A stretch of 64,000 bases of DNA from Planctomycetota bacterium (GCA_020425695.1 JAGQRE010000002.1:5829-69828); one strand, 5' to 3'; shown: positions 20,203 through 56,189, numbered from the stretch's first letter. The notes: generated from the letters alone by a model not told the origin. Translations and numbers: made by a program.

Positions 20203-21930
20203 ATGACGCAGGATGTCAGTGAATACCGGGCCGTACGTGAAGAAAAGCGTGAAGCGCTCAAGGCGCTGGGCGTGAATCCGTACGAAGTACGAACGCCCGA
20301 GCGCACCACGAACGCCGCCATTCGAACAGAATTTGAAACCGCCGAAGCCGGCGCCACTGAAGAAAACCCGGCCGTGCTGAAGGACTGCGGCATCGCCGGG
20401 CGCGTATTGGCCAACCGCAAGATGGGCAAGAAGGCCATCTTCCTCGACGTCTACGACGGCACCGGCAAGCTGCAGGTCTACATGAACGCCAAGGGCGTCG
20501 GCGAACAGGGCATGGCCATCCACGAGAACCTGGACCTTGGCGACTTCGTCTGGGTGAAGGGTGACGTCCAACGCACCCGAACGGGCGAAGTAACGCTGTT
20601 CGCCAGTGAGCTGCGATTCCTGACCAAGGCCCTGAGCGTGCCACCCCTGCCGCGTGAGTTCACCGATGAAGACGGCAACAAGAAATCCATCGACGCGCTG
20701 ACTGACCCTGAGTTGCGCCACCGCAAGCGTTATCTGGACCTGATGGTCCACGGCGAGGTCCGGGAACGCTTTGAACAGCGCAGCAAAGTCATCACGACCA
20801 TCCGCCACTATCTTGAAGCACAGGGCTTCCTTGAGGTCGAAACACCGATGATGCACCCGGTGCCGGGCGGCGCACGTGCACGCCCGTTCATCACGCACCA
20901 CAACGCGCTAGGGATGAACCTGTACCTGCGAATCGCCCCGGAGCTCTATCTCAAGCGCCTGCTGGTTGGCGGCTTCGAGCGCGTCTTTGAGGTCAACCGC
21001 AACTTCCGCAACGAAGGCATTGACCAGACCCACAACCCGGAATTCACCATGCTTGAGTTGTACGAGGCCTACGCCGACTACGAACGCATGATGGAACTGA
21101 CAGAGGGCATGATTGTCGCGGCCGCCAAGGCCCTGCGCGGCAACGACGACTTGAAGTTCAACTGGCTGGGGCACGAGATCGACCTGACGCCGCCCTTCCG
21201 CCGCGCCAGCTATGGTGACTTGTTCGCTGAGCATGTCGGGTTCGCCATGACCGACAAGGACAAGGTCGCGGCCGAAGCTAAGCGCCTTGAGATCGACCCG
21301 AAGCAGGACTACTGGAACACCGTCAACGAGATCCTTGAAGAACACGTCGAGTCAAAGCTGATTCAGCCGACCTTCATGATCGACTACCCGACGGCCATCT
21401 GCCCGCTGACGAAATCCAAGCCCGACAACCCGGACATTGCCGAGCGCTTTGAACTGTTCGTCGCCGGCATGGAGTTCGGCAACGCCTTCAGCGAGTTGAA
21501 CGAGCCAGTAGAACAACTGCGACGCTTCGTTGAGCAGGTTGAGCTTGGCAAGGCCTCGCAGGATGTAGAAGCGCCGAAGGAAGTTGACTACGACTACGTA
21601 GAAGCGCTGGAGGCAGGCATGCCGCCGGCGGGCGGTCTCGGCGTGGGCATCGACCGCCTGGTGATGCTGCTGACGGGCACGGACAGCATCCGCGAGGTGA
21701 TTCTGTTTCCGCAGATGCGCCGCGAACATCTGGACCAACAGGACGCGCCGGTCCAGCGCGCGCGAATCGCCATTGATTCGGTTCTGGAAGAGCTGGAATC
21801 GCCTGAGTTACGCAAGATTGAAGGCTTCCAGCAACTCAAGGCACGCTTCGAAGAGTTGGTCGGGCATGCGAGGATCTTGCTTGGCAGTCCGGACCAGAAG
21901 GCTGGAACGCCGGAAGACGACAAAGGCTGA
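20203..21930 (+). CDS. lysS: lysine--tRNA ligase (class II) with a ~70-aa C-terminal extension
   Basis: ATG at 20203 preceded by ggaga (the ORF-track TTG at 20149 is probably too early). Class II motifs FRNEGIDQTHNPEFTMLELYEAYADY and GGLGVGIDRLVMLLTG are present. Confidence 0.95.
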   Translation: MTQDVSEYRAVREEKREALKALGVNPYEVRTPERTTNAAIRTEFETAEAGATEENPAVLKDCGIAGRVLANRKMGKKAIFLDVYDGTGKLQVYMNAKGVGEQGMAIHENLDLGDFVWVKGDVQRTRTGEVTLFASELRFLTKALSVPPLPREFTDEDGNKKSIDALTDPELRHRKRYLDLMVHGEVRERFEQRSKVITTIRHYLEAQGFLEVETPMMHPVPGGARARPFITHHNALGMNLYLRIAPELYLKRLLVGGFERVFEVNRNFRNEGIDQTHNPEFTMLELYEAYADYERMMELTEGMIVAAAKALRGNDDLKFNWLGHEIDLTPPFRRASYGDLFAEHVGFAMTDKDKVAAEAKRLEIDPKQDYWNTVNEILEEHVESKLIQPTFMIDYPTAICPLTKSKPDNPDIAERFELFVAGMEFGNAFSELNEPVEQLRRFVEQVELGKASQDVEAPKEVDYDYVEALEAGMPPAGGLGVGIDRLVMLLTGTDSIREVILFPQMRREHLDQQDAPVQRARIAIDSVLEELESPELRKIEGFQQLKARFEELVGHARILLGSPDQKAGTPEDDKG

Positions 21931-33693: not shown

Positions 33694-33770
33694 GCGCCCG
33701 TAGCTCAGTTGGATAGAGCGGCGGTTTCCGGAGCCGCAGGTCAGAGGTTCGAATCCTCTCGGGCGTGCCA
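33694..33770 (+). tRNA. tRNA-Arg (anticodon CCG), CCA encoded
   Basis: Hand-folded. Acceptor GCGCCCG/CGGGCGT (terminal G1-U72 wobble). D arm GCTC-AGTTGGATA-GAGC. Anticodon arm GCGGT-TTCCGGA-GCCGC gives anticodon CCG. T arm AGAGG-TTCGAAT-CCTCT. Then G73 and CCA. Confidence 0.9.
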
Positions 33771-35315
33771 GACTTGATGAAGGTCGTCGGAATCGGCTCC
33801 GGCGACTTTCTTTTTCTGCCACTCGGCGTTTGTAAGTCGCAGCGCTTCAAAGGGTTGCTCAAGCTCGACCTTCAACTCACCGTCCTCGAAAGTGCAGTTC
33901 GAACACAGTAGTTGAAGCATCTTGCGCTTCTCTACCGCATCCTGCTTCAAGAACAGCGTGTGGGCCTTCTTGGCTAGTTCGAGCAGTTGAACGCCCTCCT
34001 CGACGAAGTCCTCGCTTGCCTGCTGGTGTTGCTCGATCTTCGCGAGTAGCTCCTCCTGCTCTTTGCGCCACTTCTCCTGTAAGCGCATGCAGCGGTCCTC
34101 CGTGAGCTTGCCTTCGAGGTAGTCCTCGTAGGCTCTGTCCGCTCGGGTCTCAAGCTTGGTGTACTCCGCCTGCAAGCGGGCGAGAGAAGCCGCATGGAGC
34201 TTCTTCTTGTGGGCTTGGCTCTGCTTGAGTCCATCGGCAACAATGCGCAGGATGTCCTCGCCAAAGTCGAGTTGGCGAAGGACGCCTGCGAAGACCTTGT
34301 CCAGTTCCTCTTCACGGAAGCGCATCTTCTTTCCGGGGCCTTTGTGCTTGCCACCGGGCGCATAGTAGCGGTATTTGCCGCCTTTTTTGGCATCGCCGAC
34401 GAACTGGCGGCCCGACGCAGCGTCCTGAATCAGGCTGTTGTAGGCGAAGAGGTGTTTGCGCTTGACCGACTTCTTGCCCTTGCTGTTGCGCTTGTCTCGG
34501 GCTTCCTGAGCGCGGTGCCAGAGGTCTATGGAGATGAGCGGTTCATAGACGCCATCTATCAACTTGCCGCCCCACTCGAACATGCCGGTGTACATTCTTC
34601 GGTTGAGGATTAGGGCGACAGACGGCGCGCAGAAGGGCTTGTCTGTCTTCGGTGAACGCCAGCCGTGCTCATCCGCCATTCTGCCAATCTCGCTCATCGA
34701 GTAGCTGGCCGTCGCGTACTGCTGAAACATCCACTCGATCATCGGCGCGTACGTCGGGTCAGGAATGATGATGTTCCTGCCCTCCTCGCCCCGAACGTTG
34801 GCGTATCCAATGGGCGCACTTGTCGGCCACATGCCCTCGTCGGCCTTCTGCCTCATGCCTTTCTTGGCCTCCATACTAAGGTTGTCGCTGTAACGCTTGG
34901 CAATCGCAACGTGGATCGTGTGCATGAACGTCTTGTCCGTCGAGACGCCGGGACTGAGCACCTCGCCCTCGCGGACCAGATGCAGACATGCACCGAGTTG
35001 GTCCACCTTCACGAAATCGACGAGGTTGCGGTAAAGGCGATCCGTCTTTTCGGCTAGGATCGCAGGTGCAGACTCAGGTCGCTCGCTCACGAACTGGAGC
35101 ATGTCTCCGAATGCCTTGCGACCGGCGACTTTCGCGCTTTCAGCTTCGACAAACTCCCGCAGAACGCAGAAACCATTGGCCTTCGCATAGTCGCGAAGCA
35201 GTTTCAACTGAGCCGCGACCGAGTAGCCCTCTGACTGCTGCTCAAGCGTGCTAACACGTGCGTAAATGACGGCGGGCCGCTTCGCGGCGTCGTCAGGTTG
35301 AGGATGGGTTTTCAA
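33741..35315 (-). CDS. large serine recombinase (integrase)
   Basis: 524 aa. Resolvase-type catalytic domain AVIYARVSTLEQQSEGYSVAAQ...EKTDRLYRN, a recombinase domain, a ribbon region without cysteines and a long C-terminal coiled coil. TTG start with agggag SD. The last 10 codons (WHAREDSNL*) are the reverse complement of the tRNA-Arg T-arm/acceptor. Confidence 0.9.
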   Translation of the reverse strand: MKTHPQPDDAAKRPAVIYARVSTLEQQSEGYSVAAQLKLLRDYAKANGFCVLREFVEAESAKVAGRKAFGDMLQFVSERPESAPAILAEKTDRLYRNLVDFVKVDQLGACLHLVREGEVLSPGVSTDKTFMHTIHVAIAKRYSDNLSMEAKKGMRQKADEGMWPTSAPIGYANVRGEEGRNIIIPDPTYAPMIEWMFQQYATASYSMSEIGRMADEHGWRSPKTDKPFCAPSVALILNRRMYTGMFEWGGKLIDGVYEPLISIDLWHRAQEARDKRNSKGKKSVKRKHLFAYNSLIQDAASGRQFVGDAKKGGKYRYYAPGGKHKGPGKKMRFREEELDKVFAGVLRQLDFGEDILRIVADGLKQSQAHKKKLHAASLARLQAEYTKLETRADRAYEDYLEGKLTEDRCMRLQEKWRKEQEELLAKIEQHQQASEDFVEEGVQLLELAKKAHTLFLKQDAVEKRKMLQLLCSNCTFEDGELKVELEQPFEALRLTNAEWQKKKVAGADSDDLHQVWHAREDSNL

Positions 35316-43001: not shown

Positions 43002-43138
43002 GTGCAGACGGCAAGGACGCTTCGAGGATCACCTTGAAGCGTCCATTCCGGTTTAACTGTGCAGACGATTCTGGCCACAACACGGCATTCCGGTTTAAAT
43101 CGGCATCTCGTTCGGGCAGAAAACGCCATTCCGGTTAA
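43002..43138. repeat. iteron-like direct repeats
   Basis: cattccggtttaa occurs at 43044 and 43086, and cattccggttaa at 43127 (spacing 42 and 41 bp). The first and third copies are followed within 2-3 nt by gtgcagacg (43059) and gtgcaagcg (43140); a further gtgcagacg lies at 43002. Non-coding gap between ardC and the FG-GAP gene. Confidence 0.6.
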
Positions 43139-43204
43139 AGTGTGCAAGCGCTTTCGTGCCCCGAATCGAGTCGCGCCGCGAAAGCGCTTTCGCGAGGGCA
43201 GGGC

Positions 43205-45550: not shown

Positions 45551-45688
45551 GTGTTGCGATGCAACAACCAGCGCCACAAGAGGCCCACCATCTGGGCGGT
45601 CGCAACCGGGTAGGACGAGTTGTTGCAGCAATGACGGGATTACTTGAGTGGCGGCCATGAAGGCGGCCATATTCAGGGGTCCCGAACC

Positions 45689-45898
45689 ATGTCCGCTCCC
45701 AAGTTACGCACGACACAAGTCCGTCGTTGGACGACGGCGCAATCACTGTGCTGGATTGCCAAGACTGGTGCTCACCTGCTGCTTCTTTGGGCCGCATTCT
45801 CGACTGGAGATTACATGCGCTTGATTGCATCGGCTTTGATTCTCGCCACCATCCTAGTTGAGGCTTTGTCGGCGGTTGCCAAGACTCCGGTTGACTAG
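45689..45898 (+). CDS. possible small 2-TM membrane protein
   Basis: The internal ATG gives 69 aa with two hydrophobic helices (LCWIAKTGAHLLLLWAAF, LIASALILATILVEALSAV). Weak support. Confidence 0.3.
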   Translation: MSAPKLRTTQVRRWTTAQSLCWIAKTGAHLLLLWAAFSTGDYMRLIASALILATILVEALSAVAKTPVD

Positions 45899-46096
45899 CG
45901 CGCACGCAACCAGAGATGCGCCTATAGATCGACGCGAAGAGCACTACAACGCAATACGGGCGAATCTGTCCTGTGCAGCCAGTATCAGTATCGCCGCACG
46001 CGACATAGTTTCTGTTTTCTTCGACACGCGCTATAGCTAAGCTCTGCGCCAAGGCCAGATGGCCAAACACTGTCAATTCACCTCAAGGGGGTACCC

Positions 46097-48628
46097 ATGC
46101 GAAAGCGCCTGCTGCTTGCAGTGCTTGTTGGTCTTATGCTGGCTGGCTGCGCTGGTGAGGACGATGGTGGAGGGGGTTCGGGTGGCGGCGGTGGGTCTCC
46201 GACAGGGAACATCTCTGGCACGATTACCCCCTTCAACGAGTACCCAGTTGTCACGGCGGCAGAAGCGACCGACTCTACGACGGCCAGCCCACTTCAAGTC
46301 GCAGGTCCGAAGGCAGGCGAGTTGCTATTCGTCTTGGGAACCCTCTCTAGCTCTGGCGGAGACACATCGGACCGCGTGACATTCACCGAAGGGAACACCG
46401 CGACATACAACGTGAAAATCAGTTGGCTTGACGGAACCAATCAGGATGTGGACCTTACGGTCAGTCGATTCGACGGAACTACCACGAACCTCCTCACACT
46501 AAACGGCACAACCAATCCCGAGTTCGGTAACTTCGCCGTAACGGGAGGTGCGGGCGCGACGATCATCTTCGACATCACTCTCTTCTCCGGCACGAGCACA
46601 CAGTGGCGGATGGACGTAACCGTTCTATCCGGTAGCCCGTCCAGTGTTCGCCCGCCGTTCCCCGACTATCCAAAGACCGAGTACGATCCAATGGAAGTCG
46701 CAGTTGAAGGTCAGGATGCTGTTCCCGACCGCCTGCTAGTTACTTTCGAAAAGAACGTCTCCACCCAAATGCAAGCTGACCTCTTAGCCCTACACGGCCT
46801 CGCCGCAGCACGAACCCTCAGTGGAGGAGCCGTAGTGGCAGAACGCTTGCAGCCGACCTCAACGGACCCACTCCACTCCGCAGTTTCCCACCTCGTAGAG
46901 TTGGCGAATCTGTCGGCCCACCTTTCGATGCACCCATACATTACAGTTGCCGAACCGGACTACATTCGCCGTCACTTCCTGACTCCAAACGACCCGCACT
47001 TCGCCGCGTATCAAGCTTGGCACTACAACGCCATCAATCTTCCTGCGGCGTGGAACATCACCACCGGTTCAACCTCTGTCATCGTCGCCGTTGTTGATAC
47101 AGGCGTCGTATTGAGTCACCCGGACTTGGCAGGCAGATTGATAGGTGGTTACGATTTCATCTCGAATCCACAAGTTGCACTTGACGGAAACGGCATCGAC
47201 AACAACCCGGATGATCCCGGCGACAATCCGGGGCAAGGCTCTTCGTTCCACGGCACTCATGTGGCTGGAACCATAGGCGCGGCGTCGAACAACTCGACTG
47301 GTGGTGCAGGCGTAGATTGGAACTGCAAGCTCATGCCATTGCGCGTACTGGGAGCAGGCGGAGGAGCCGACAGCGACATAGCTGAGGCAGTTAGGTACGC
47401 AGCACGCTTGACGAACGCGAGCGGCACATTGCCACCCAACCGAGCAGACATCATCAACATGTCGCTCGGTAGTCCGGCAAGCACGACAGTCTTGGCCAAT
47501 GCGATTACCGCTGCAAGTACAGCAGGATGCACGCTGATCGCCGCAGCGGGGAACAACGCACAGCAAGGGAATGCGCCCAACTTCCCGGCCTCGTATGCGG
47601 AGGTCATTGCGGTTGGCGCTATCAACCGAAACTATGCCCGCGCGGTGTACAGCAACACCACCAGTGGCACGACTGTTTGTGCACCCGGTGGAGAAACAAC
47701 GTTCCCATTCTCCACGCAGGACGGCGTCCTTAGCACTTGGCGCGACGACACGGCGACACCTGCTGTGAACAAGTACCAATGGCAGCAGGGTACTTCGATG
47801 GCTTCACCGCACGTGGCTGGTGTTGCCGCCCTGATGCTCGCAGTCAACCCCTCTCTCACTCCAGCCAACATCCGAACTATCTTGACCAGTACGGCATTGG
47901 ACCTTGGCACGTCAGGGTACGACGCCGAGTACGGGTTTGGACTCGTGCGTGCAGAAGCAGCGTTGATCGCAGCGGGAGGCACACTCCCAGCCAATCCGCC
48001 AACGGCAGCCGTTACTAACAACATCGTCCTTGTTCCGTCCGGAGCAGCGACTGCCTACACGAGCGTGGTGAACATCGGTGGCGGGACGCTCTCTGTGAGT
48101 AACCCTCAAGCGTTTCACTTTGGCACGGAGAGTTGGCTCGGCGTTTCGCTGCAACAGAACGGGACGCAAGTGCTTGTGGTGCTGAGCATCAATCAGGCCC
48201 AACTAACCACGGGAAACCTCTACTATGCAGTTGCCACGGTAGACACGAACGACTCCAGCGCGCCCGTCGTCCCGATTGCCGTGCTAGTTAACAAGCTGGC
48301 ACCGAAAGCCGTAACGTATCAAGTTCGTGTGCGAGCAGTGGATGTCGCAACGGGGCAAGTTGAAGGCGAAGTCTTCACGGACGCATCTTCGGGGTTTTCC
48401 TACACGCTCTCGGGCCTTGATCCCGCTGACTACTTCGTCGTCGGCTTCGTTGATCGAGACACCAGCGGCTCGCTGACGAACAACGACCTCTACGGAGCCT
48501 ATCCGTCATTTACGATACCTAGCGCAGTGACGGTCACGGGTGGTGCGAACACCACTGGGATCAACTTCCCACTTGAACGACACACCGTTGGGATCACGGC
48601 AGTAGGCTCCGCGCAAGCGGTCCCCTAG
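46097..48628 (+). CDS. secreted/lipoprotein subtilisin-family (S8) serine protease
   Basis: Lipobox LMLAGC. I9-like propeptide. Catalytic triad motifs VAVVDTGV, HGTHVAGTIGA and GTSMASPHVAGVAA. C-terminal beta-sandwich region. Confidence 0.9.
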   Translation: MRKRLLLAVLVGLMLAGCAGEDDGGGGSGGGGGSPTGNISGTITPFNEYPVVTAAEATDSTTASPLQVAGPKAGELLFVLGTLSSSGGDTSDRVTFTEGNTATYNVKISWLDGTNQDVDLTVSRFDGTTTNLLTLNGTTNPEFGNFAVTGGAGATIIFDITLFSGTSTQWRMDVTVLSGSPSSVRPPFPDYPKTEYDPMEVAVEGQDAVPDRLLVTFEKNVSTQMQADLLALHGLAAARTLSGGAVVAERLQPTSTDPLHSAVSHLVELANLSAHLSMHPYITVAEPDYIRRHFLTPNDPHFAAYQAWHYNAINLPAAWNITTGSTSVIVAVVDTGVVLSHPDLAGRLIGGYDFISNPQVALDGNGIDNNPDDPGDNPGQGSSFHGTHVAGTIGAASNNSTGGAGVDWNCKLMPLRVLGAGGGADSDIAEAVRYAARLTNASGTLPPNRADIINMSLGSPASTTVLANAITAASTAGCTLIAAAGNNAQQGNAPNFPASYAEVIAVGAINRNYARAVYSNTTSGTTVCAPGGETTFPFSTQDGVLSTWRDDTATPAVNKYQWQQGTSMASPHVAGVAALMLAVNPSLTPANIRTILTSTALDLGTSGYDAEYGFGLVRAEAALIAAGGTLPANPPTAAVTNNIVLVPSGAATAYTSVVNIGGGTLSVSNPQAFHFGTESWLGVSLQQNGTQVLVVLSINQAQLTTGNLYYAVATVDTNDSSAPVVPIAVLVNKLAPKAVTYQVRVRAVDVATGQVEGEVFTDASSGFSYTLSGLDPADYFVVGFVDRDTSGSLTNNDLYGAYPSFTIPSAVTVTGGANTTGINFPLERHTVGITAVGSAQAVP

Positions 48629-48654
48629 CACTAAGATGGAGTGGAGTCAGGAAG

Positions 48655-50102: not shown

Positions 50103-51128
50103 TCAACTCGCGACAACTTCGCAAACCCCATCTAGAGCACCCTTGGTGAAGCCTTTTGCCTGAGCCTCGTCGACGGACGACCACGCGTTGAAGACGAAGC
50201 CTTGGGGTTCTCGCAACTGCTTCGGCACATCGGCGCTAGTTAGTATCTGGCCCGGCTTCGCGTGGTTGCAGATTCGAGCCGCGAGATTGAGCGGCACTCC
50301 AACAACGTCGTAAAAGTCTTCTCCAGCAGACCCGTGTTCGCGCTGCTTGAGAGACAAAACTTCTCCAGTCGCAATCGCCGCGCCTATCCCCGTAGGTGGC
50401 GCGAAATTGAACCCATCGGCGGCGACCTTCCACTCCTCCATGACCGAGATCAGCGAAGACACCGCCTGCTGAATAGCTTCGACGAGGCCCTCCTCACCTT
50501 CGTCGGGCAACCACAAGAACATGCAGCCGTCACCCAACGGTTTCCGAATCACACGACACGGGTCTTCTGGCGTGGAAGAAATGACCACCCGCCAGAACTC
50601 AAGCATTAGTTCTGGAGTGTTGGCGTTTCGGTCCGGCGTTTGATTCAGCCAAGAAGTGAATCCTCTAATGTCGATGAAGGCCGCTACAACACGGCGGGCT
50701 ACGCAATGCAGCGGCACGTCAATGTCCGGTACCGGCCAATCCGGCTGCAACAGATCGTCAAGGTCAACGGGAAACACGGTCACTCTGACTTCTTTGGAAT
50801 CTAGATCGAACTCAGCCTCAAAATCGCATGTTCCCGAGCCCAGTCCTCCCATGCCGTCTTCGTCGCCCTTGGCGTCTTCGAAGTACAAGCTCACCCGGCC
50901 CGGCACAGTCACAACGAACTCATCGCGCCTCGCATCGGTGAAGTCAGGCTCAATGTCGCTAAAGTCGCCTACGCCTTGCCAGCCCGGCAAGTCCGAAATC
51001 CACCCTGAATCCGCACCGTTCAACCAGTCATAGAACGGCTGGAGATCGCCGTCGTCAAACCAGTCGTGTATCCACTGCGGAATGCCGTCATCCGGGCTCT
51101 TTGCTGGTTCAACCTTCCTAGCGGCCAT
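50103..51128 (-). CDS. class III nucleotidyl (adenylate/guanylate-type) cyclase domain protein with unknown acidic/Trp-rich N-terminal domain
   Basis: The C-terminal half carries VAAFIDIRGFTSW (metal Asp 1), PLGDGCMFLW (metal Asp 2), GIGAAIATGEV and VGVPLNLAARICNHAKPGQILTS (Asn/Arg transition-state pair). The N-terminal ~150 aa (IPQWIHDWFDDGDLQPFYDWLNG...) have no recognisable fold. Confidence 0.8.
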   Translation of the reverse strand: MAARKVEPAKSPDDGIPQWIHDWFDDGDLQPFYDWLNGADSGWISDLPGWQGVGDFSDIEPDFTDARRDEFVVTVPGRVSLYFEDAKGDEDGMGGLGSGTCDFEAEFDLDSKEVRVTVFPVDLDDLLQPDWPVPDIDVPLHCVARRVVAAFIDIRGFTSWLNQTPDRNANTPELMLEFWRVVISSTPEDPCRVIRKPLGDGCMFLWLPDEGEEGLVEAIQQAVSSLISVMEEWKVAADGFNFAPPTGIGAAIATGEVLSLKQREHGSAGEDFYDVVGVPLNLAARICNHAKPGQILTSADVPKQLREPQGFVFNAWSSVDEAQAKGFTKGALDGVCEVVAS

Positions 51129-51504
51129 CTCTTATCCTCTGCATCAGCCTGACAAACCGAACAAAGATCGATTCTGCTGGCCGCATGTTACCGCGAAATC
51201 GCTTTCGTGGCTCCAACCACGAGCATGTTCGTGATCTGTTCAATGACTTCGAGTGGATTGCTGACGCCCCCCGACCAGAAGGCGTCCCATACCCGGTCAA
51301 TCATGCTGCGAAGGTTGCCAGTCACCTTGTTCTGCCTTGTGTGCGAGGACTGTGCTGCCTGCCGGAACAGTCCGCCCTGAGCCGTTTGCGTTGTTGATGG
51401 GGCCGCGCATCATCGGCAAGAATACGCTGTCGGCAATAGTGCCGGGGTGTTCTACGCGGGGCTATGTCGCATCAAGATGTAGGCTAGCGGCCAAGGAGGC
51501 GGTG

Positions 51505-52083
51505 ATGAGTGGCGAACTGTTTCTGTGGGTGTACTCACCTACATATAAGCCGAAGGCCGAAGTTGGCGGGCTGGTCGCGGCGAACATCGATGAAGCAAGG
51601 CGAGCGTTGATCGAGATGCTCCCCGGCAAGACCCAGGAAGTATTCCCGATTGAAGCTGATGATGGCTCGCAATACGGGGAAGCAGTTCAGTCCCCCAACA
51701 AGCGCGTGTTCAGTTGGTTCATATCGGCTACGGATACCGACGTGGAAGATGTCCTTGGTGTGGAGCCGGGCGAGAGCGCAATGCCATATGTCGTGTTTGC
51801 CGAGTCCGGAGACTCGTGGGTTGGTCCGCATGTATGCCGAGCGCCCAACATCGTCGCAGCCCTGAATGCGGCCCTTTCCCACGAGAAGCTAAAACTCGCG
51901 GGCGGCAAGTCCGCCGATCAACTCGACATGGCTGCGACCGAGCACCGCGTGCGAATCGATGACGCGAGTTGGGCAAACGGGGACCGGGCGGGCGAGACCA
52001 ACGCAACCTTGGTGATTCGCTGGCTGGAAATGGACCCGCCGCCTCATCGATTCGATCTCGCAACGTGGCAGCGGCTCAGATAG
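51505..52083 (+). CDS. hypothetical protein
   Basis: ATG at 51505 with strong SD aaggagg. 192 aa, soluble, no recognised motif. Confidence 0.5.
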   Translation: MSGELFLWVYSPTYKPKAEVGGLVAANIDEARRALIEMLPGKTQEVFPIEADDGSQYGEAVQSPNKRVFSWFISATDTDVEDVLGVEPGESAMPYVVFAESGDSWVGPHVCRAPNIVAALNAALSHEKLKLAGGKSADQLDMAATEHRVRIDDASWANGDRAGETNATLVIRWLEMDPPPHRFDLATWQRLR

Positions 52084-52352
52084 CCGCGCGTCCAGTCTTT
52101 GGTCCACTCCCGATACGCCGGGCACTCGTCAAGCGATTCCGCTCCACGCAAAAAAGCAGTGGCGAATCCAGCGTCGCCTCCCACAAGGGGTGCCGCCATT
52201 TGTCCACAAAGAAAAAACAAGGGTTAAACAGGTCCAGTCGTGCATAAGTGCCGTGGCAAATGAACTTAAGGGCACCTCCTTGGAGTTGCCAACTTCTCAG
52301 TGACACCTCTTATCAACCGTTGCCCGATGACTTAATGTGGATAGATTGAGCC

Positions 52353-52440
52353 TGCTGGCGGTGGGACTCGAACCCACAATGAGCCGGGGAAGCTCCGTGG
52401 TTTTAGAAACCACTGCGTCTACCAGTTCCGCCACACCAGC
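52353..52440 (-). tRNA. type-II Leu-like tRNA with anticodon CUA (predicted amber-suppressor tRNA); no encoded CCA
   Basis: Hand-folded from the reverse complement. Acceptor GCTGGTG/CGCCAGC. The D region TGGCGGAACTGGTAGACGC is the tRNA-Leu signature. Anticodon arm GTGGT-TTCTAAA-ACCAC gives C34 U35 A36. The variable region is 19 nt with a 4-5 bp stem. T arm GTGGG-TTCGAGT-CCCAC. Discriminator A73. Confidence 0.8.
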
Positions 52441-52614
52441 AGGGTTGTCAGCGGGCACCAGCGCAATCTGGTGCCCGCAGAACTTAACAGACTAGCATCA
52501 CGCCCTAAGCAAATGCGGCGTGTTGGGGGATTGTGGATTGCGTGCTTTCGCGTTCGCTTTGTAGAAGCCGCGATAAGTGAGCGCGCTTCCCACTTAAGGA
52601 AGCGGAGCGGTGGA

Positions 52615-53592
52615 ATGGCAAGGTCTGATCTCGTCCTGAGCTTGATAGAAGCCGGAGTCAAGGGCGATCAGGCGCGTTTGCGCCGCACGGTCGAAGCATT
52701 GATCGCTGATGAGAGAGCAAAGCAGCACAATGCTCTGGCGGACAGACTAGATCGTGTAATCTCGAAACAGCCAGAGGCAGCAGCCAACGTCATCGCGGAT
52801 CAAATCTCTTCGACCGATTTGTTCAGCGCCAAGACTCCCGAAAGACAGCTAAGCGAACTCGTGCTTCCCAGCCCGATTACGAAGCTCGTCCGGCAGATGA
52901 TAGAAGAGCAACATCGAAGTGAACTACTCAAAGCGTACAACCTCAAACCACGCCATCGTCTCATTGCGGTAGGGCCTCCCGGCAATGGAAAGACCTCACT
53001 CGCGGAAGCCATTGCCTACGAACTTATGGTTCCCCTGATTACATTGAGCTATGAGGGGATCATCGGCAGCTATCTCGGCCAGACGGCGCAACGACTCGGA
53101 CGACTGTTCAGCTTTGTGCGCCAGCGCTCCTGCGTGCTCTTTATTGATGAATTCGATGCGCTGGGCAAGGAGCGAGGCGACCTGCACGAGACCGGCGAAA
53201 TCAAGCGAGTCGTCAACTCCCTGCTGCTCCAGATTGACTCGCTTCCCAGCCATGTCGTTCTGGTAGCGGCGAGCAATCACGAGGAACTGCTTGACCGAGC
53301 GGCGTGGCGTCGGTTTGAGATCAAGATCGATCTACCAAAGCCAACCGTCAAACAGCGAATTCAGTGGTTGTCTCGCCTCAAGAAATCCCTTAAACAGTCT
53401 TTGGGATACGACATTGAGAAGTTGGCAAGAAAGTTAGCAGGTGCAAGCTTCTCTGATCTGGAACAGTTTTCCTTGAACATCAGACGCAGGTACGTGCTGG
53501 AACAACCTCAGAGCAGCCTACGGAAGATTGTCAACTCCGAGCTTTCGACACTTCGCTCACGTAAAGGCCGCTCAAGCACCTCAGGACAATAG
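52615..53592 (+). CDS. classical AAA+ ATPase (IetA-like)
   Basis: ATG at 52615. Walker A VGPPGNGKTSLAEA, Walker B VLFIDEFDALG and second region of homology VAASNHEELLDRAAWRRF. The downstream S8 gene starts 11 nt after the stop. Confidence 0.85.
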   Translation: MARSDLVLSLIEAGVKGDQARLRRTVEALIADERAKQHNALADRLDRVISKQPEAAANVIADQISSTDLFSAKTPERQLSELVLPSPITKLVRQMIEEQHRSELLKAYNLKPRHRLIAVGPPGNGKTSLAEAIAYELMVPLITLSYEGIIGSYLGQTAQRLGRLFSFVRQRSCVLFIDEFDALGKERGDLHETGEIKRVVNSLLLQIDSLPSHVVLVAASNHEELLDRAAWRRFEIKIDLPKPTVKQRIQWLSRLKKSLKQSLGYDIEKLARKLAGASFSDLEQFSLNIRRRYVLEQPQSSLRKIVNSELSTLRSRKGRSSTSGQ

Positions 53593-53603: not shown

Positions 53604-56189
53604 ATGCCAGACGAGCGCCTACCATACTTGGTCTTTAGGAACCTGACGCGAAGTCCGGCGAGAGGTGCTGGCGGGGGCAACAAGAGACCTCCTCGTGAAT
53701 TGTCCACGGCCCAAAGGGCGTCAGTGGCCACGAAGATGCAGCGGCTGGAAGAAGTGACCAATGCTTGGTTACAAGCGTCACCCGCTGGGATGTCTCCAGA
53801 ACGCGTGCTTGTCTTCGAGGTTGCGCATCACATCAAAGACTTCCGTGAGTCCGTTGAGCGCATAGGGATGTCGTGGCTCTTCGAGAGCGCCGGTGAAGAG
53901 AGGGAGCCAAGTGACCAGTTCTATCTGGAAAAAAAGTCCACCGGAAGTCCGTGGACGACATCCGACAGCCCCCTAACTGAGCACTATTACTTTACCTCCA
54001 CCAACGCCAGAGCAGTCCAAGACGTGATCGCGAGATGGCATGACCACGCACGAGGGCGCCTGAGACCACGTCTAAACACAAAGTGGATGGAACTCTTCGC
54101 AATGCTGAAAGACGTGCGCTACTGGTCAGCGCGAGACCGTCTCAGTCACTCCTACGTTCTTGAAAACTGGGCCAGTCGCCTCGAACTGTCGCCACAAGAA
54201 CCCGTGAGAGCGGAAGCGGAGCTTTGGTGGCGAGGAGACCGTCATCAGGACGCAGCCTCTCGATTTGAAGCAAGCGTGGTCGCCAGTGGAGGCAACGTAC
54301 TCCAATTCAGCGTTCGTCCTGAGATCGCCTATCATGCCGCATTGATCGAATTGCCCGCCGACACGGCCCGGTTGGCGATAGACCATCAAGATCGGCTATC
54401 CGAAGTTGCAGCCCTTGCCTGCGAAGACGTCCTACTCTTCCAAGGAGCAGGGCAGACTGCGGCTCCACGAATCGCTGAATCTGGCGAAACATTGCGACGA
54501 GACCGGTCAACCACCACGCCACTTCGATCCGGTTCTCCGGTCGCCGCTGCATTGGACGGCTACCCTCTCGCAAATCATGCGCTGCTCACAGAGCGAATTG
54601 ACGTGCTTGACCCAGACAATCTCGGTGAACTAATCGACCCGGAGTACCGCCTCCACGGAACCGAAGTGGCCTCCGTGATGGTCTGCGGCGAAGGAGTCCT
54701 GCCCGGCGAGACCCTGCAAAACCGGATCGTGATCCATCCCGTTTTGGCACCTAAGGTGGAGGCTTTGGACGGAACCGTTCGCGAGCGACTGCCGGATGAC
54801 CAACTCTCGGTTGACTATATACACAGGGCAATCGTCAATGTTCTCGACGCCTACCCCTCAGTTCGCGTGTTCAACATCTCTATTGGCGACGAAGGGCGTC
54901 ACTTCCTGAAAGCGGTAAGTCCTCTGGCACGCTTGCTGGATTGGATTAGCTGGGAGCGCGGCGTACTGTTCGTCGTGAGTGCCGGTAACTACACCAAGGA
55001 CTTGGAGCTTGACGATGACATCTCAGCGCTAGATGCCAGCGGATTGCAAGCTAAGTCAATCAAGTCGATGTTGGACACAGTGTGGGATCGTCAGGTGTTG
55101 TCTCCAGCCGATTCCGTGAATGCGCTCACCGTTGGTGCGGCAAACTCCGATGGAAGCGGAGATTCATTCAACCTTGCATCGGGACTGGTGCTTCCAATCC
55201 AGAGCATGCACATGGCGAGCCCCCTAAATCGCATTGGCTGGGGATTCAAGGGTAGTATTTCGCCGGAAGTGCTGTTTCCCGGAGGTCGCCAGCCGTATCG
55301 CGCGCCGCTGCCGGGGATCGCAGGCGATGCCGCGAAAAGGCTCACACTGAGCAGGTCCCGAGCGCAACCGGGGTTGCGCGTCGCAACTCCGGGAAGGCAA
55401 GGTCTGACCGACGAAATTGCGTGGGGCCGGGGAACGAGCCTAGCCGCAGCCTTGGCAACGCGGCTCGCCGCGCTCGTCTTGGAGAAGATGGCCGAACTCA
55501 GGGCTACGCGGAGCGAGTTCGCCCAATTAGACGCCCGCCTCGATTTTGTTCTCGCCAAGTGCATGCTAATCCACGGTGCAAGGTGGGGCTCAACGGTGAC
55601 CGATCACTTTGATGATGCCGGGCTGTCGAAGGCCGACCTAGCGAGACTGATGGGGTTTGGCATTGCAAACCCCGAGACTTCCATTGGCTGCTTGAGCAAC
55701 CGCGCAACGGTGATCGCCAGCGGCGAGATAGGAGTAAATGAGCAGCATGACTTTGAGTTCCCGCTACCTCCATGCCTATCTGGTGCAACCGCGACGAGAG
55801 AAGTTGTCGCCTCCTTGGCATGGATGGCCCCCACGAATCCTAACTTTCCGAGCCAGTATAGTTGCGTTCGCTGTGAGGTCATCGGAGTGAAGCGTGGCAC
55901 CGAGTTCCAACTGGAAGAGGACGAAGTCCAGTACAAGAAGTCAAAACTCGGTACGACCCAGCATCGCGTACTCAGGGGCTTTCGGCCAACAAGTGTATTC
56001 GACGACGGCAAGAGCCTGCGCATACGGGTAAAGTGTTTGGAAACTCCAGCACTAGCGGGAGCAGCCTTGGACTTGGAGGAGTTGGCGGTCCCGTATGGCC
56101 TCGCCGTTACAATATCCACAGAAGCTGATCTGCCGATCTACACCGAGATCGCCTCGCGACTAGGCGTTGCACTGCCAGTGAGGCGCTAG
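53604..56189 (+). CDS. cytosolic S8-family serine peptidase with large unknown N-terminal region (IetS-like)
   Basis: 861 aa with no signal peptide. Triad candidates are AALDGYPLANH (Asp), LHGTEVASVMVCG (His) and GRGTSLAAALATRLAA (Ser). The first ~320 aa and last ~200 aa are unrecognised. Confidence 0.8.
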   Translation: MPDERLPYLVFRNLTRSPARGAGGGNKRPPRELSTAQRASVATKMQRLEEVTNAWLQASPAGMSPERVLVFEVAHHIKDFRESVERIGMSWLFESAGEEREPSDQFYLEKKSTGSPWTTSDSPLTEHYYFTSTNARAVQDVIARWHDHARGRLRPRLNTKWMELFAMLKDVRYWSARDRLSHSYVLENWASRLELSPQEPVRAEAELWWRGDRHQDAASRFEASVVASGGNVLQFSVRPEIAYHAALIELPADTARLAIDHQDRLSEVAALACEDVLLFQGAGQTAAPRIAESGETLRRDRSTTTPLRSGSPVAAALDGYPLANHALLTERIDVLDPDNLGELIDPEYRLHGTEVASVMVCGEGVLPGETLQNRIVIHPVLAPKVEALDGTVRERLPDDQLSVDYIHRAIVNVLDAYPSVRVFNISIGDEGRHFLKAVSPLARLLDWISWERGVLFVVSAGNYTKDLELDDDISALDASGLQAKSIKSMLDTVWDRQVLSPADSVNALTVGAANSDGSGDSFNLASGLVLPIQSMHMASPLNRIGWGFKGSISPEVLFPGGRQPYRAPLPGIAGDAAKRLTLSRSRAQPGLRVATPGRQGLTDEIAWGRGTSLAAALATRLAALVLEKMAELRATRSEFAQLDARLDFVLAKCMLIHGARWGSTVTDHFDDAGLSKADLARLMGFGIANPETSIGCLSNRATVIASGEIGVNEQHDFEFPLPPCLSGATATREVVASLAWMAPTNPNFPSQYSCVRCEVIGVKRGTEFQLEEDEVQYKKSKLGTTQHRVLRGFRPTSVFDDGKSLRIRVKCLETPALAGAALDLEELAVPYGLAVTISTEADLPIYTEIASRLGVALPVRR

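Follow-up and report, generated by a model that had tools for sequence, protein, structure and literature searches.

A Leu-type tRNA gene with the anticodon CUA lies inside a strain-specific genomic island of a Planctomycetota bacterium. The window, i.e. the whole stretch of 64,000 nucleotides analysed here (GCA_020425695.1, JAGQRE010000002.1:5829-69828), comes from a metagenome-assembled genome that is assigned to the Planctomycetota by the names on identical proteins. The tRNA is probably a genuine suppressor that inserts Leu at UAG, is carried by the island, is maintained by selection and has a low or conditional activity; its expression, its charging with leucine, its read-through of UAG and its benefit are what we infer from the features described below. 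The first-pass annotation of this DNA had described the gene as a natural amber-suppressor candidate. The present analysis supports and strengthens this reading, the gene keeping the status of a candidate.

Identity and structure of the tRNA

52353..52440, minus strand: class II Leu-type tRNA with anticodon CUA (ARAGORN, Rfam, cloverleaf as minimum-free-energy fold, D-arm match)

On the window, ARAGORN calls two tRNAs, namely the tRNA-Arg(CCG) at the island border described below and a tRNA with the anticodon cta at 52352-52441 on the minus strand. The label printed for the latter, 'tRNA-Pyl', is automatic for every cta anticodon and reflects the anticodon only. The Rfam model RF00005 matches 52353-52440 on the minus strand from end to end (model positions 1-71), with a good score of 55.2 bits against a gathering score of 29 and an E-value of 3.7e-9, and the minimum-free-energy fold of the 88 nt is a cloverleaf. 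These results confirm the long-variable-arm, Leu-type tRNA with a CUA anticodon that had initially been recognised by eye.

The acceptor stem, as read from the sequence, comprises 7 bp (GCUGGUG/CGCCAGC), including one U-G pair, and the D stem comprises 3 bp of the Leu type (GCG...CGC). The anticodon stem GUGGU/ACCAC has five perfect base pairs and closes the 7-nt loop UUCUAAA, with U33, the anticodon C34 U35 A36, and A37 A38; stem and loop are thus as described in the first-pass annotation. The anticodon corresponds to the plus-strand TAG at 52404-52406, with C34 at 52406, U35 at 52405 and A36 at 52404, so that position 35, for which raw reads were to be inspected at 52406, is in fact at 52405. 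The variable arm GAGCU-UCCCC-GGCUC forms a 5-bp stem with a 5-nt loop, and the T arm is GUGGG-UUCGAGU-CCCAC. The features needed for translation are intact: 7-bp acceptor and 5-bp T stems, U8, A14, G18G19, U33, the GUUCGAG T loop and the discriminator A73. As expected of an amber suppressor, the canonical loop of 7 nt presents CUA, preceded by U33 and followed by a purine at position 37. The bases after A73 are GGC, so that the gene, unlike the neighbouring tRNA-Arg, does not encode CCA.

With regard to the amino acid, 20 aligned columns of the D arm (columns 8-27) were compared with the annotated class II tRNAs of E. coli MG1655. The D arm, GUGGCGGAACUGGUAGACGCAG, matches leuX(CAA) in 17 of the 20 columns and leuZ(UAA) in 16, versus 13 for serT and 10 for tyrT. 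Together with A73, this bears out the Leu hallmarks previously noted in the D region and at the discriminator. The tRNA exhibits the long variable arm, the A73 and the Leu-type D arm (3-bp stem, GG placement and GGUAGAC motif) of the tRNA-Leu class, and it shares its T loop and the A37-A38 context with the Leu isoacceptors that read UUR. The anticodon loop, UUCUAAA, differs by a single substitution from that of leuX (UUCAAAA), as had been claimed; that of leuZ is UUUAAAA. Judged from these sequence features, the tRNA is of the Leu type and one base away from a CAA anticodon. Its overall identity to E. coli leuX is only 66%, and blastn found no match to the tRNA in plasmids, phages or E. coli genomes.

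Conservation of the tRNA

Contigs spanning the tRNA, which are short, were recovered by exact-protein look-ups of neighbouring genes. Four independent metagenome assemblies are 100% identical through the tRNA, CTA included: L001 (SAMN08389198), L057 (SAMN08389196), L058 (ERZ27309150) and L059 (ERZ27309162). Since these four independent assemblies agree, the CTA anticodon is not an assembly error.

A second, deeply diverged lineage, hereafter lineage B, is represented by two Logan contigs from SRR31660265/6, L043 and L044, whose overlap is 100% identical. Its module has the same composition: an orphan gene, the tRNA(cta), IetA and IetS. Between the window and lineage B, the 4-fold degenerate sites differ at 63% in IetA, 69% in IetS and 62% in the orphan gene, which corresponds to saturation, and ordinary non-coding DNA is approximately 36-64% identical. 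In the tRNA, 86 of 87 bases are identical and CTA is kept. The two copies differ by a substitution in the D loop and by the loss of a single base between variable arm and T stem; their anticodon loops are the same. Even if the divergence were only 20%, one mismatch or none in 87 sites would be expected with a probability of 8e-8. On this comparison of two sequences, strong purifying selection is shown to act on the tRNA, CUA included, and the gene appears to be functional and maintained; only two lineages of this tRNA(CUA) are known, and covariation inside the tRNA itself is nil. At position 35, where an A would restore CAA, the only diverged orthologue has a U and the four assemblies read CTA. 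As CUA and 86 of 87 bases were kept across saturated synonymous divergence, the tRNA is not a recent accident. It had been proposed that the gene results from the same change that creates the supP suppressor of E. coli. The distance of one base from CAA stands, but the gene is not a fresh mutation and belongs to an old, conserved CUA lineage.

Leader, trailer and putative promoter

52451..52478, minus strand: 11-bp GC-rich hairpin in the 5' leader, GCGGGCACCAG-loop-CUGGUGCCCGC, 10 nt upstream of the mature tRNA 5' end
52479..52490, minus strand: conserved motif CUGUUAAGUUCU just upstream of the hairpin, identical in both lineages
52205..52352, minus strand: 3' trailer with conserved blocks (alignment of the two lineages)

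Conservation extends beyond the tRNA on both sides. The 51-nt leader (52441-52491) is 90% identical between the two lineages, versus 36-64% for other non-coding DNA. Its hairpin is a perfect 11-bp inverted repeat that occurs once in the window and folds with -26.3 kcal/mol (z=-4.55). In lineage B (L043) it is kept with a compensatory change from C-G to U-A at 52452/52477. It may act as a hairpin of the leader RNA or, at the DNA level, as an operator common to the divergent promoters of the tRNA and IetAS. The motif CUGUUAAGUUCU may hold a -10-like element, TAAGTT, of a putative tRNA promoter; a scan of the region with the sigma-70 consensus found no promoter.

The trailer is 63.5% identical between the lineages, versus 35.5% for the adjoining 52084-52204. 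It begins with 16 invariant nucleotides right after the tRNA, and its conserved blocks (CAAUCUAUCCACAUUA directly 3' of the tRNA, GGGCAA..GUUGAUAA, AGUUGGCAA and UGUUUUUUCUUUGUGG) end in a U-rich stretch. The trailer possibly acts as a terminator or, by analogy with 3'ETS-leuZ of E. coli, gives rise to a trailer-derived RNA. The Rfam search of the tRNA region returned no family other than tRNA, and none in the trailer. Theta ribozymes often directly follow phage tRNA-Sup genes (PMC10879173). An HDV-like or theta ribozyme was considered for the trailer and rejected, as it had no Rfam support and no convincing P1 pairing was seen by eye.

These conserved flanks bear on two other explanations of the gene. 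In the first, the product would be a tRNA-like RNA acting outside translation: a decoy or sensor for enzymes of phages or of defence systems that target tRNAs, a source of regulatory fragments or of a 3'-trailer sRNA, or a recombination target. The leader hairpin and trailer blocks are conserved beyond the needs of an ordinary tRNA gene, E. coli leuZ has the trailer-derived sRNA 3'ETS-leuZ, which is annotated in MG1655, conflicts between phages and hosts commonly centre on tRNAs, and no UAG-containing client gene was found in the window. However, every translation feature of the tRNA is intact and its anticodon loop is fully conserved, neither a repeat of the tRNA 3' half nor an integrase beside the tRNA marks an att site, and tRNA is the only Rfam family that matches. 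We regard a non-translational role as unlikely.

The second explanation is an accident or artefact: a redundant copy of tRNA-Leu might recently have mutated from CAA to CUA, the gene might be a pseudogene in decay, or the sequencing or assembly might be at fault. A single base does separate CUA from CAA, the gene lies in a horizontally acquired island, where pseudogenes are common, and CCA is not encoded, unlike in tRNA-Arg. All stems are nevertheless intact, the four assemblies are identical, and the near-complete identity of the tRNA persists despite the saturated synonymous sites. The compensatory change in the leader and the change in the D loop further argue against a recent transfer of the tRNA alone into a diverged locus. 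An accident or artefact is thus highly improbable.

The genomic island and its genes

33694..33770, plus strand: tRNA-Arg(CCG) with encoded CCA, integration site and left island border (ARAGORN, Rfam, sister comparison)
33741..35315, minus strand: large serine recombinase at the island border (Pfam Resolvase 2.2e-20 and Recombinase 4.8e-13)
46097-48628: second S8 subtilase, a secreted lipoprotein with the signal peptide MRKRLLLAVLVGLMLAGC and no adjacent IetA
50103-51128, minus strand: 341-aa cyclase-like gene (weak PADLOC PycC matches, E=7e-5 and 0.002; no Pfam match)
51215..51325, minus strand: remnant of the N-terminus of a type I restriction-modification HsdM, 37 codons (tblastn 78% over 37 aa)
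51505..52083, plus strand: orphan 192-aa gene (hyp192), convergent with the tRNA and beside it in both lineages
52615..53592, plus strand: IetA AAA+ ATPase, oriented divergently from the tRNA and separated from it by 174 nt (PADLOC IetA 4e-139, Pfam AAA)
53604..56189, plus strand: IetS S8 subtilase (PADLOC IetS 6.9e-215, Pfam Peptidase_S8)

The window aligns collinearly with the sister genome GCA_041398505.1 (contig JAWKUP010000002.1, L054) from position 21092 onwards, at 96.3% identity, and the alignment stops exactly at 33770, where tRNA-Arg(CCG) ends. Beyond this point the sister genome carries unrelated housekeeping genes, and the rest of the window, up to 64000, shows no further homology to it. 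The GC content drops from approximately 0.61 to approximately 0.57 into this segment. The end of the homology at a tRNA 3' end, the recombinase at the border and the shift in composition mark the segment as a genomic island of at least 30.2 kb, with a right border beyond the window; no repeat of the 3' ends of tRNA-Arg or tRNA(CUA) marks a right border within the window. The tRNA(CUA) lies approximately 18.6 kb inside. It had been placed beside a mobile region, but the comparison with the sister genome reveals island on both of its sides.

The cargo of the island comprises the lipoprotein subtilase, the cyclase-like gene, the orphan gene, the tRNA, IetAS, and a cluster for Cu/Ag efflux with a P-type ATPase. 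The lipoprotein subtilase is not a paralogue partner of the IetS type; it begins with the lipoprotein signal peptide, and no IetA lies beside it. Two types of repeats are observed elsewhere in the island. The 16-nt near-palindrome GCGAAATCGCTTTCGT and its variants occur in five intergenic copies (39007, 40578, 43142, 43178 and 51193), several of them right after stop codons, and may be island-specific terminator-like or regulatory hairpins. Three direct repeats of approximately 20 nt (CATTCCGGTTTAA...) at 43044-43146, with a spacing of 41-42 nt, lie immediately upstream of a 369-aa ORF at 43142, in an arrangement that resembles iterons or an operator array.

The 5' side of the tRNA had been described as facing an ATPase/protease pair. 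This orientation is confirmed, and the pair is IetAS, with PADLOC E-values of 4e-139 and 7e-215; the start of IetA was placed from the profile and the ribosome-binding site. IetAS is said to have been presented as a defence system by Gao et al. in 2020. IetA homologues show 91% identity in lineage B and then drop to at most 57%. In two other lineages with 56-57% IetA identity (L049-L053), no tRNA is found within 4 kb of IetA, which is packed directly behind other genes. The tRNA was thus rejected as a general component of IetAS, being absent from the IetAS loci of these two lineages; of the loci compared, only those of the window lineage and lineage B have it.

On the other side of the tRNA, the orphan gene ends in TAG in both lineages. 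Only two homologues of its protein were found among 5.8 billion proteins, the amino acid identity is 64-71%, no match was obtained in Pfam, PHROG, NCBIfam or PADLOC, and the AF2 model, with a pLDDT of 35, is unusable. Past the position at which it is truncated in the window, the hsdM frame runs on over at least 158 aa in lineage B (L044, 3-476), up to the end of the contig, and over at least 73 aa in a population variant from the same sample series (L064, 3-221). In the window, the remainder of hsdM is replaced by the cyclase-like gene, whose 341-aa product may be a nucleotide cyclase belonging to a defence system; no effector is evident. The orphan gene, the tRNA and IetAS therefore form a stable core amid changing neighbours, as is seen in defence islands.

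UAG usage and the genetic code

UAG had been described as a common stop in this window, and the stops that had been listed are all TAG on the right strand, with rpmA likewise ending in TAG. In a crude ORF call, 27 of 56 ORFs end in TAG, 20 in TGA and 9 in TAA, in a genome of approximately 60% GC. Once obvious shadows are removed, TAG is the stop of 23 out of 48 curated ORFs, rpmA and purA among them, and core genome and island have similar shares of it. Backup stops are not found nearby: the next in-frame UAA or UGA lies at a median of 55 codons after the UAG stop. As UAG is the commonest stop and has no backup, an efficient constitutive suppressor would be costly.

UAG ends profile-complete genes at the expected Pfam or PADLOC lengths, e.g. 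rpmA, purA, IetA and IetS, and no long ORF interrupted by UAG was found in the window. One candidate for an in-frame UAG, at 45635-48634, was rejected, since it is a non-coding stretch between genes, after which a lipoprotein signal peptide begins. The comparison of the two lineages lends no support to conserved read-through extensions of hyp192, IetA or IetS, and in lineage B the stop of IetA is TGA. The genome and the island therefore use the standard code, and nothing visibly depends on suppression. The suggestion that the tRNA belongs to a recoding phage is not supported either, as neither phage genes nor in-frame UAG codons speak for it; no phage structural genes are present.

The same data bear on the possibility that UAG is a sense codon, read as leucine or pyrrolysine, with this tRNA as its cognate. 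The 'tRNA-Pyl' printed by ARAGORN would agree with pyrrolysine, but it is printed for any cta. A sense UAG is hardly compatible with its use as the terminator of approximately half of the ORFs, rpmA, purA, IetA and IetS among them, at profile-expected lengths, with the lack of UAG-interrupted long ORFs and of pyl genes in the window, or, in the case of pyrrolysine, with a long variable arm and a Leu-type D arm. We consider a change of code, or pyrrolysine, to be extremely improbable.

Other Leu-type tRNA(CUA) genes and the link to defence

Suppressor tRNAs have been found in 0.3% of 42,109 standard-code bacterial genomes (PMC13092985). When we scanned for a Leu-type D arm combined with a CUA loop, 19 of 185,579 GTDB species genomes matched, 16 of which were confirmed as tRNA(cta) by ARAGORN; in IMG/VR, 7 contigs matched and 6 were confirmed. 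The genome of the window itself does not figure among the GTDB representatives. None of these tRNAs is more than 74% identical to the tRNA of the window, and none lies next to IetAS. Most of the other Leu-type tRNA(CUA) loci have no PADLOC match nearby, and the neighbours are mixed, with ordinary genes besides cas, IS and MazF cases. A general link between Leu-type tRNA(CUA) and defence was consequently rejected, the neighbours of this kind (cas, MazF, IS) being anecdotal.

Among the individual loci, those of two Bryobacterales species (MAGs; L019, 3230-3318; L020, 1770-1862) have an IS1-like transposase immediately behind the Leu-type tRNA(CUA) and in the same orientation, an arrangement suggesting that the suppressor tRNA travels with, or serves, the insertion sequence. 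In a Hyphomicrobiales MAG (L013, 1150-1239), the tRNA(CUA) adjoins type I CRISPR-associated genes of the GSU0053/GSU0054 families, and at L025 (7272-7354) a Leu-type tRNA(CUA) adjoins a MazF/PemK toxin.

A metagenome scan with the anticodon-arm pattern returned only coding sequences of LeuRS and no tRNA. In these JGI contigs (L036-L042), the 20 specified bases of the anticodon arm encode EQWFLKTT within the LeuRS genes, which is a coincidence. Of three viral scans with parts of the tRNA, two had no match. The third revealed 25 nt identical to the 3' end of the tRNA (T arm and acceptor) in IMGVR_UViG_3300033121_000490 (L055, 2584-2678), within a 95-nt tRNA-like sequence that is not a tRNA and lies beside a tRNA-Trp; this may represent a degenerate tRNA or the core of an attP site.

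The position of the gene raises the question of a role in defence. The tRNA might be a silent suppressor induced by infection, whose read-through of UAG would corrupt the proteomes of phage and host (abortive infection) or switch on too early the UAG-gated late genes of stop-codon-recoded phages; in a variant of this explanation, the tRNA would be co-regulated with IetAS via the divergent control region. In both lineages the tRNA lies among defence genes (HsdM or the cyclase-like gene on one side, IetAS on the other), the hyp192-tRNA-IetAS core persists amid gene turnover on its borders, and a palindromic hairpin is conserved between the tRNA and the promoter region of IetA. The cost of constitutive activity in a UAG-rich genome argues for conditional use, some other tRNA(CUA) genes adjoin cas, MazF or IS elements, as described above, and phages gate late genes with tRNA-Sup (PMC10879173). 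In contrast, a tRNA is lacking from the IetAS loci of two other lineages, PADLOC gives no match near most of the other Leu-type tRNA(CUA) loci, and the literature searched holds neither a precedent for suppressor defence on the host side nor a description of a defence island that includes a suppressor tRNA encoded by the host. No recoded phages of Planctomycetota are documented here, and linkage inside one island can be plain hitch-hiking. A defence-linked suppressor is therefore quite unlikely. It is very doubtful that a silent UAG-to-Leu suppressor serves as an active anti-phage element gated by a leader palindrome common to the IetAS control region; if it did, infection would switch on a lethal, proteome-wide read-through in a UAG-rich cell, or would mis-time UAG-gated phage genes.

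Proposed function

For the maintained UAG-to-Leu suppressor of low or conditional activity that we favour, the following sequence of events can be proposed. The gene would be transcribed from its own promoter, divergently from IetAS, with a structured 5' leader that RNase P would remove, and CCA would be added by the CCA-adding enzyme. According to the identity rules of tRNA-Leu, LeuRS would charge the tRNA via A73 and the architecture of the D arm and tertiary contacts. The sequence A36-A37-A38 would fit the context of MiaA (i6A37) in tRNAs that decode codons starting with U. The charged tRNA would then compete with RF1 and insert leucine at UAG. Its activity must be weak or conditional, since UAG ends approximately half of the genes and the next non-UAG stop lies at a median of 55 codons; low expression or control by the conserved leader hairpin/palindrome, for example, could account for this.

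Natural suppressor tRNAs in bacteria with the standard code are rare and mostly unexplained. The present case is informative because it combines purifying selection, a mobile defence island and the use of UAG as the main stop, and even a modest activity would extend many proteins, including ribosomal protein L27. A segment of approximately 430 bp (52190-52620) provides a clonable test case for how cells tolerate or regulate a stop-codon suppressor, and for whether read-through is ever used in conflicts between phages and hosts or among mobile elements. As a naturally evolved, Leu-type candidate amber suppressor with its own leader, the gene may also be of use for genetic-code engineering in non-model bacteria.

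Comparison with known systems

The supP suppressor, which arose from E. coli leuX by a change from CAA to CUA, shares with the tRNA of the window the UUR-reading, class II Leu kind, A37-A38, the D-arm pattern and CUA. However, supP is a laboratory mutation in a chromosomal gene, whereas the tRNA described here is natural and island-borne, with a CUA that is conserved between lineages. The E. coli LeuRS reads A73 and the architecture of the D arm and tertiary contacts, and not the anticodon.

Other unusual tRNAs differ in architecture. tRNA-Pyl has a variable loop of 3 nt, an anticodon stem of 6 bp and a small D loop; in contrast, the tRNA of the window exhibits a variable arm of at least 15 nt, an anticodon stem of 5 bp and a Leu-type D loop, and no pyl genes are present among the annotated neighbours in the window. 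An allo-tRNA (8/4 or 9/3) was rejected on account of the canonical 7-bp acceptor and 5-bp T stems. With regard to IetAS, the adjacent, divergent genes are clear IetA and IetS according to PADLOC. IetAS is a two-gene system, of which the tRNA is here a neighbour and not a defining part.

The suppressor tRNAs reported for standard-code bacteria (PMC13092985) are likewise cognate to a stop codon that the genome still uses. Compared with that set, UAG is here the majority stop, and purifying selection is shown for the gene, which lies in a defence island. Finally, the tRNA-Sup(CUA) of phages (code 15; theta-ribozyme-linked, PMC10879173) is likewise borne by a mobile element and has conserved flanks, and Leu-type CUA tRNAs occur in IMG/VR. 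Unlike in these phages, there are no phage structural genes, no in-frame UAG in the genes of the island and no HDV-like ribozyme match in the trailer; the carrier is instead a serine-recombinase island whose cargo combines defence and Cu/Ag resistance.
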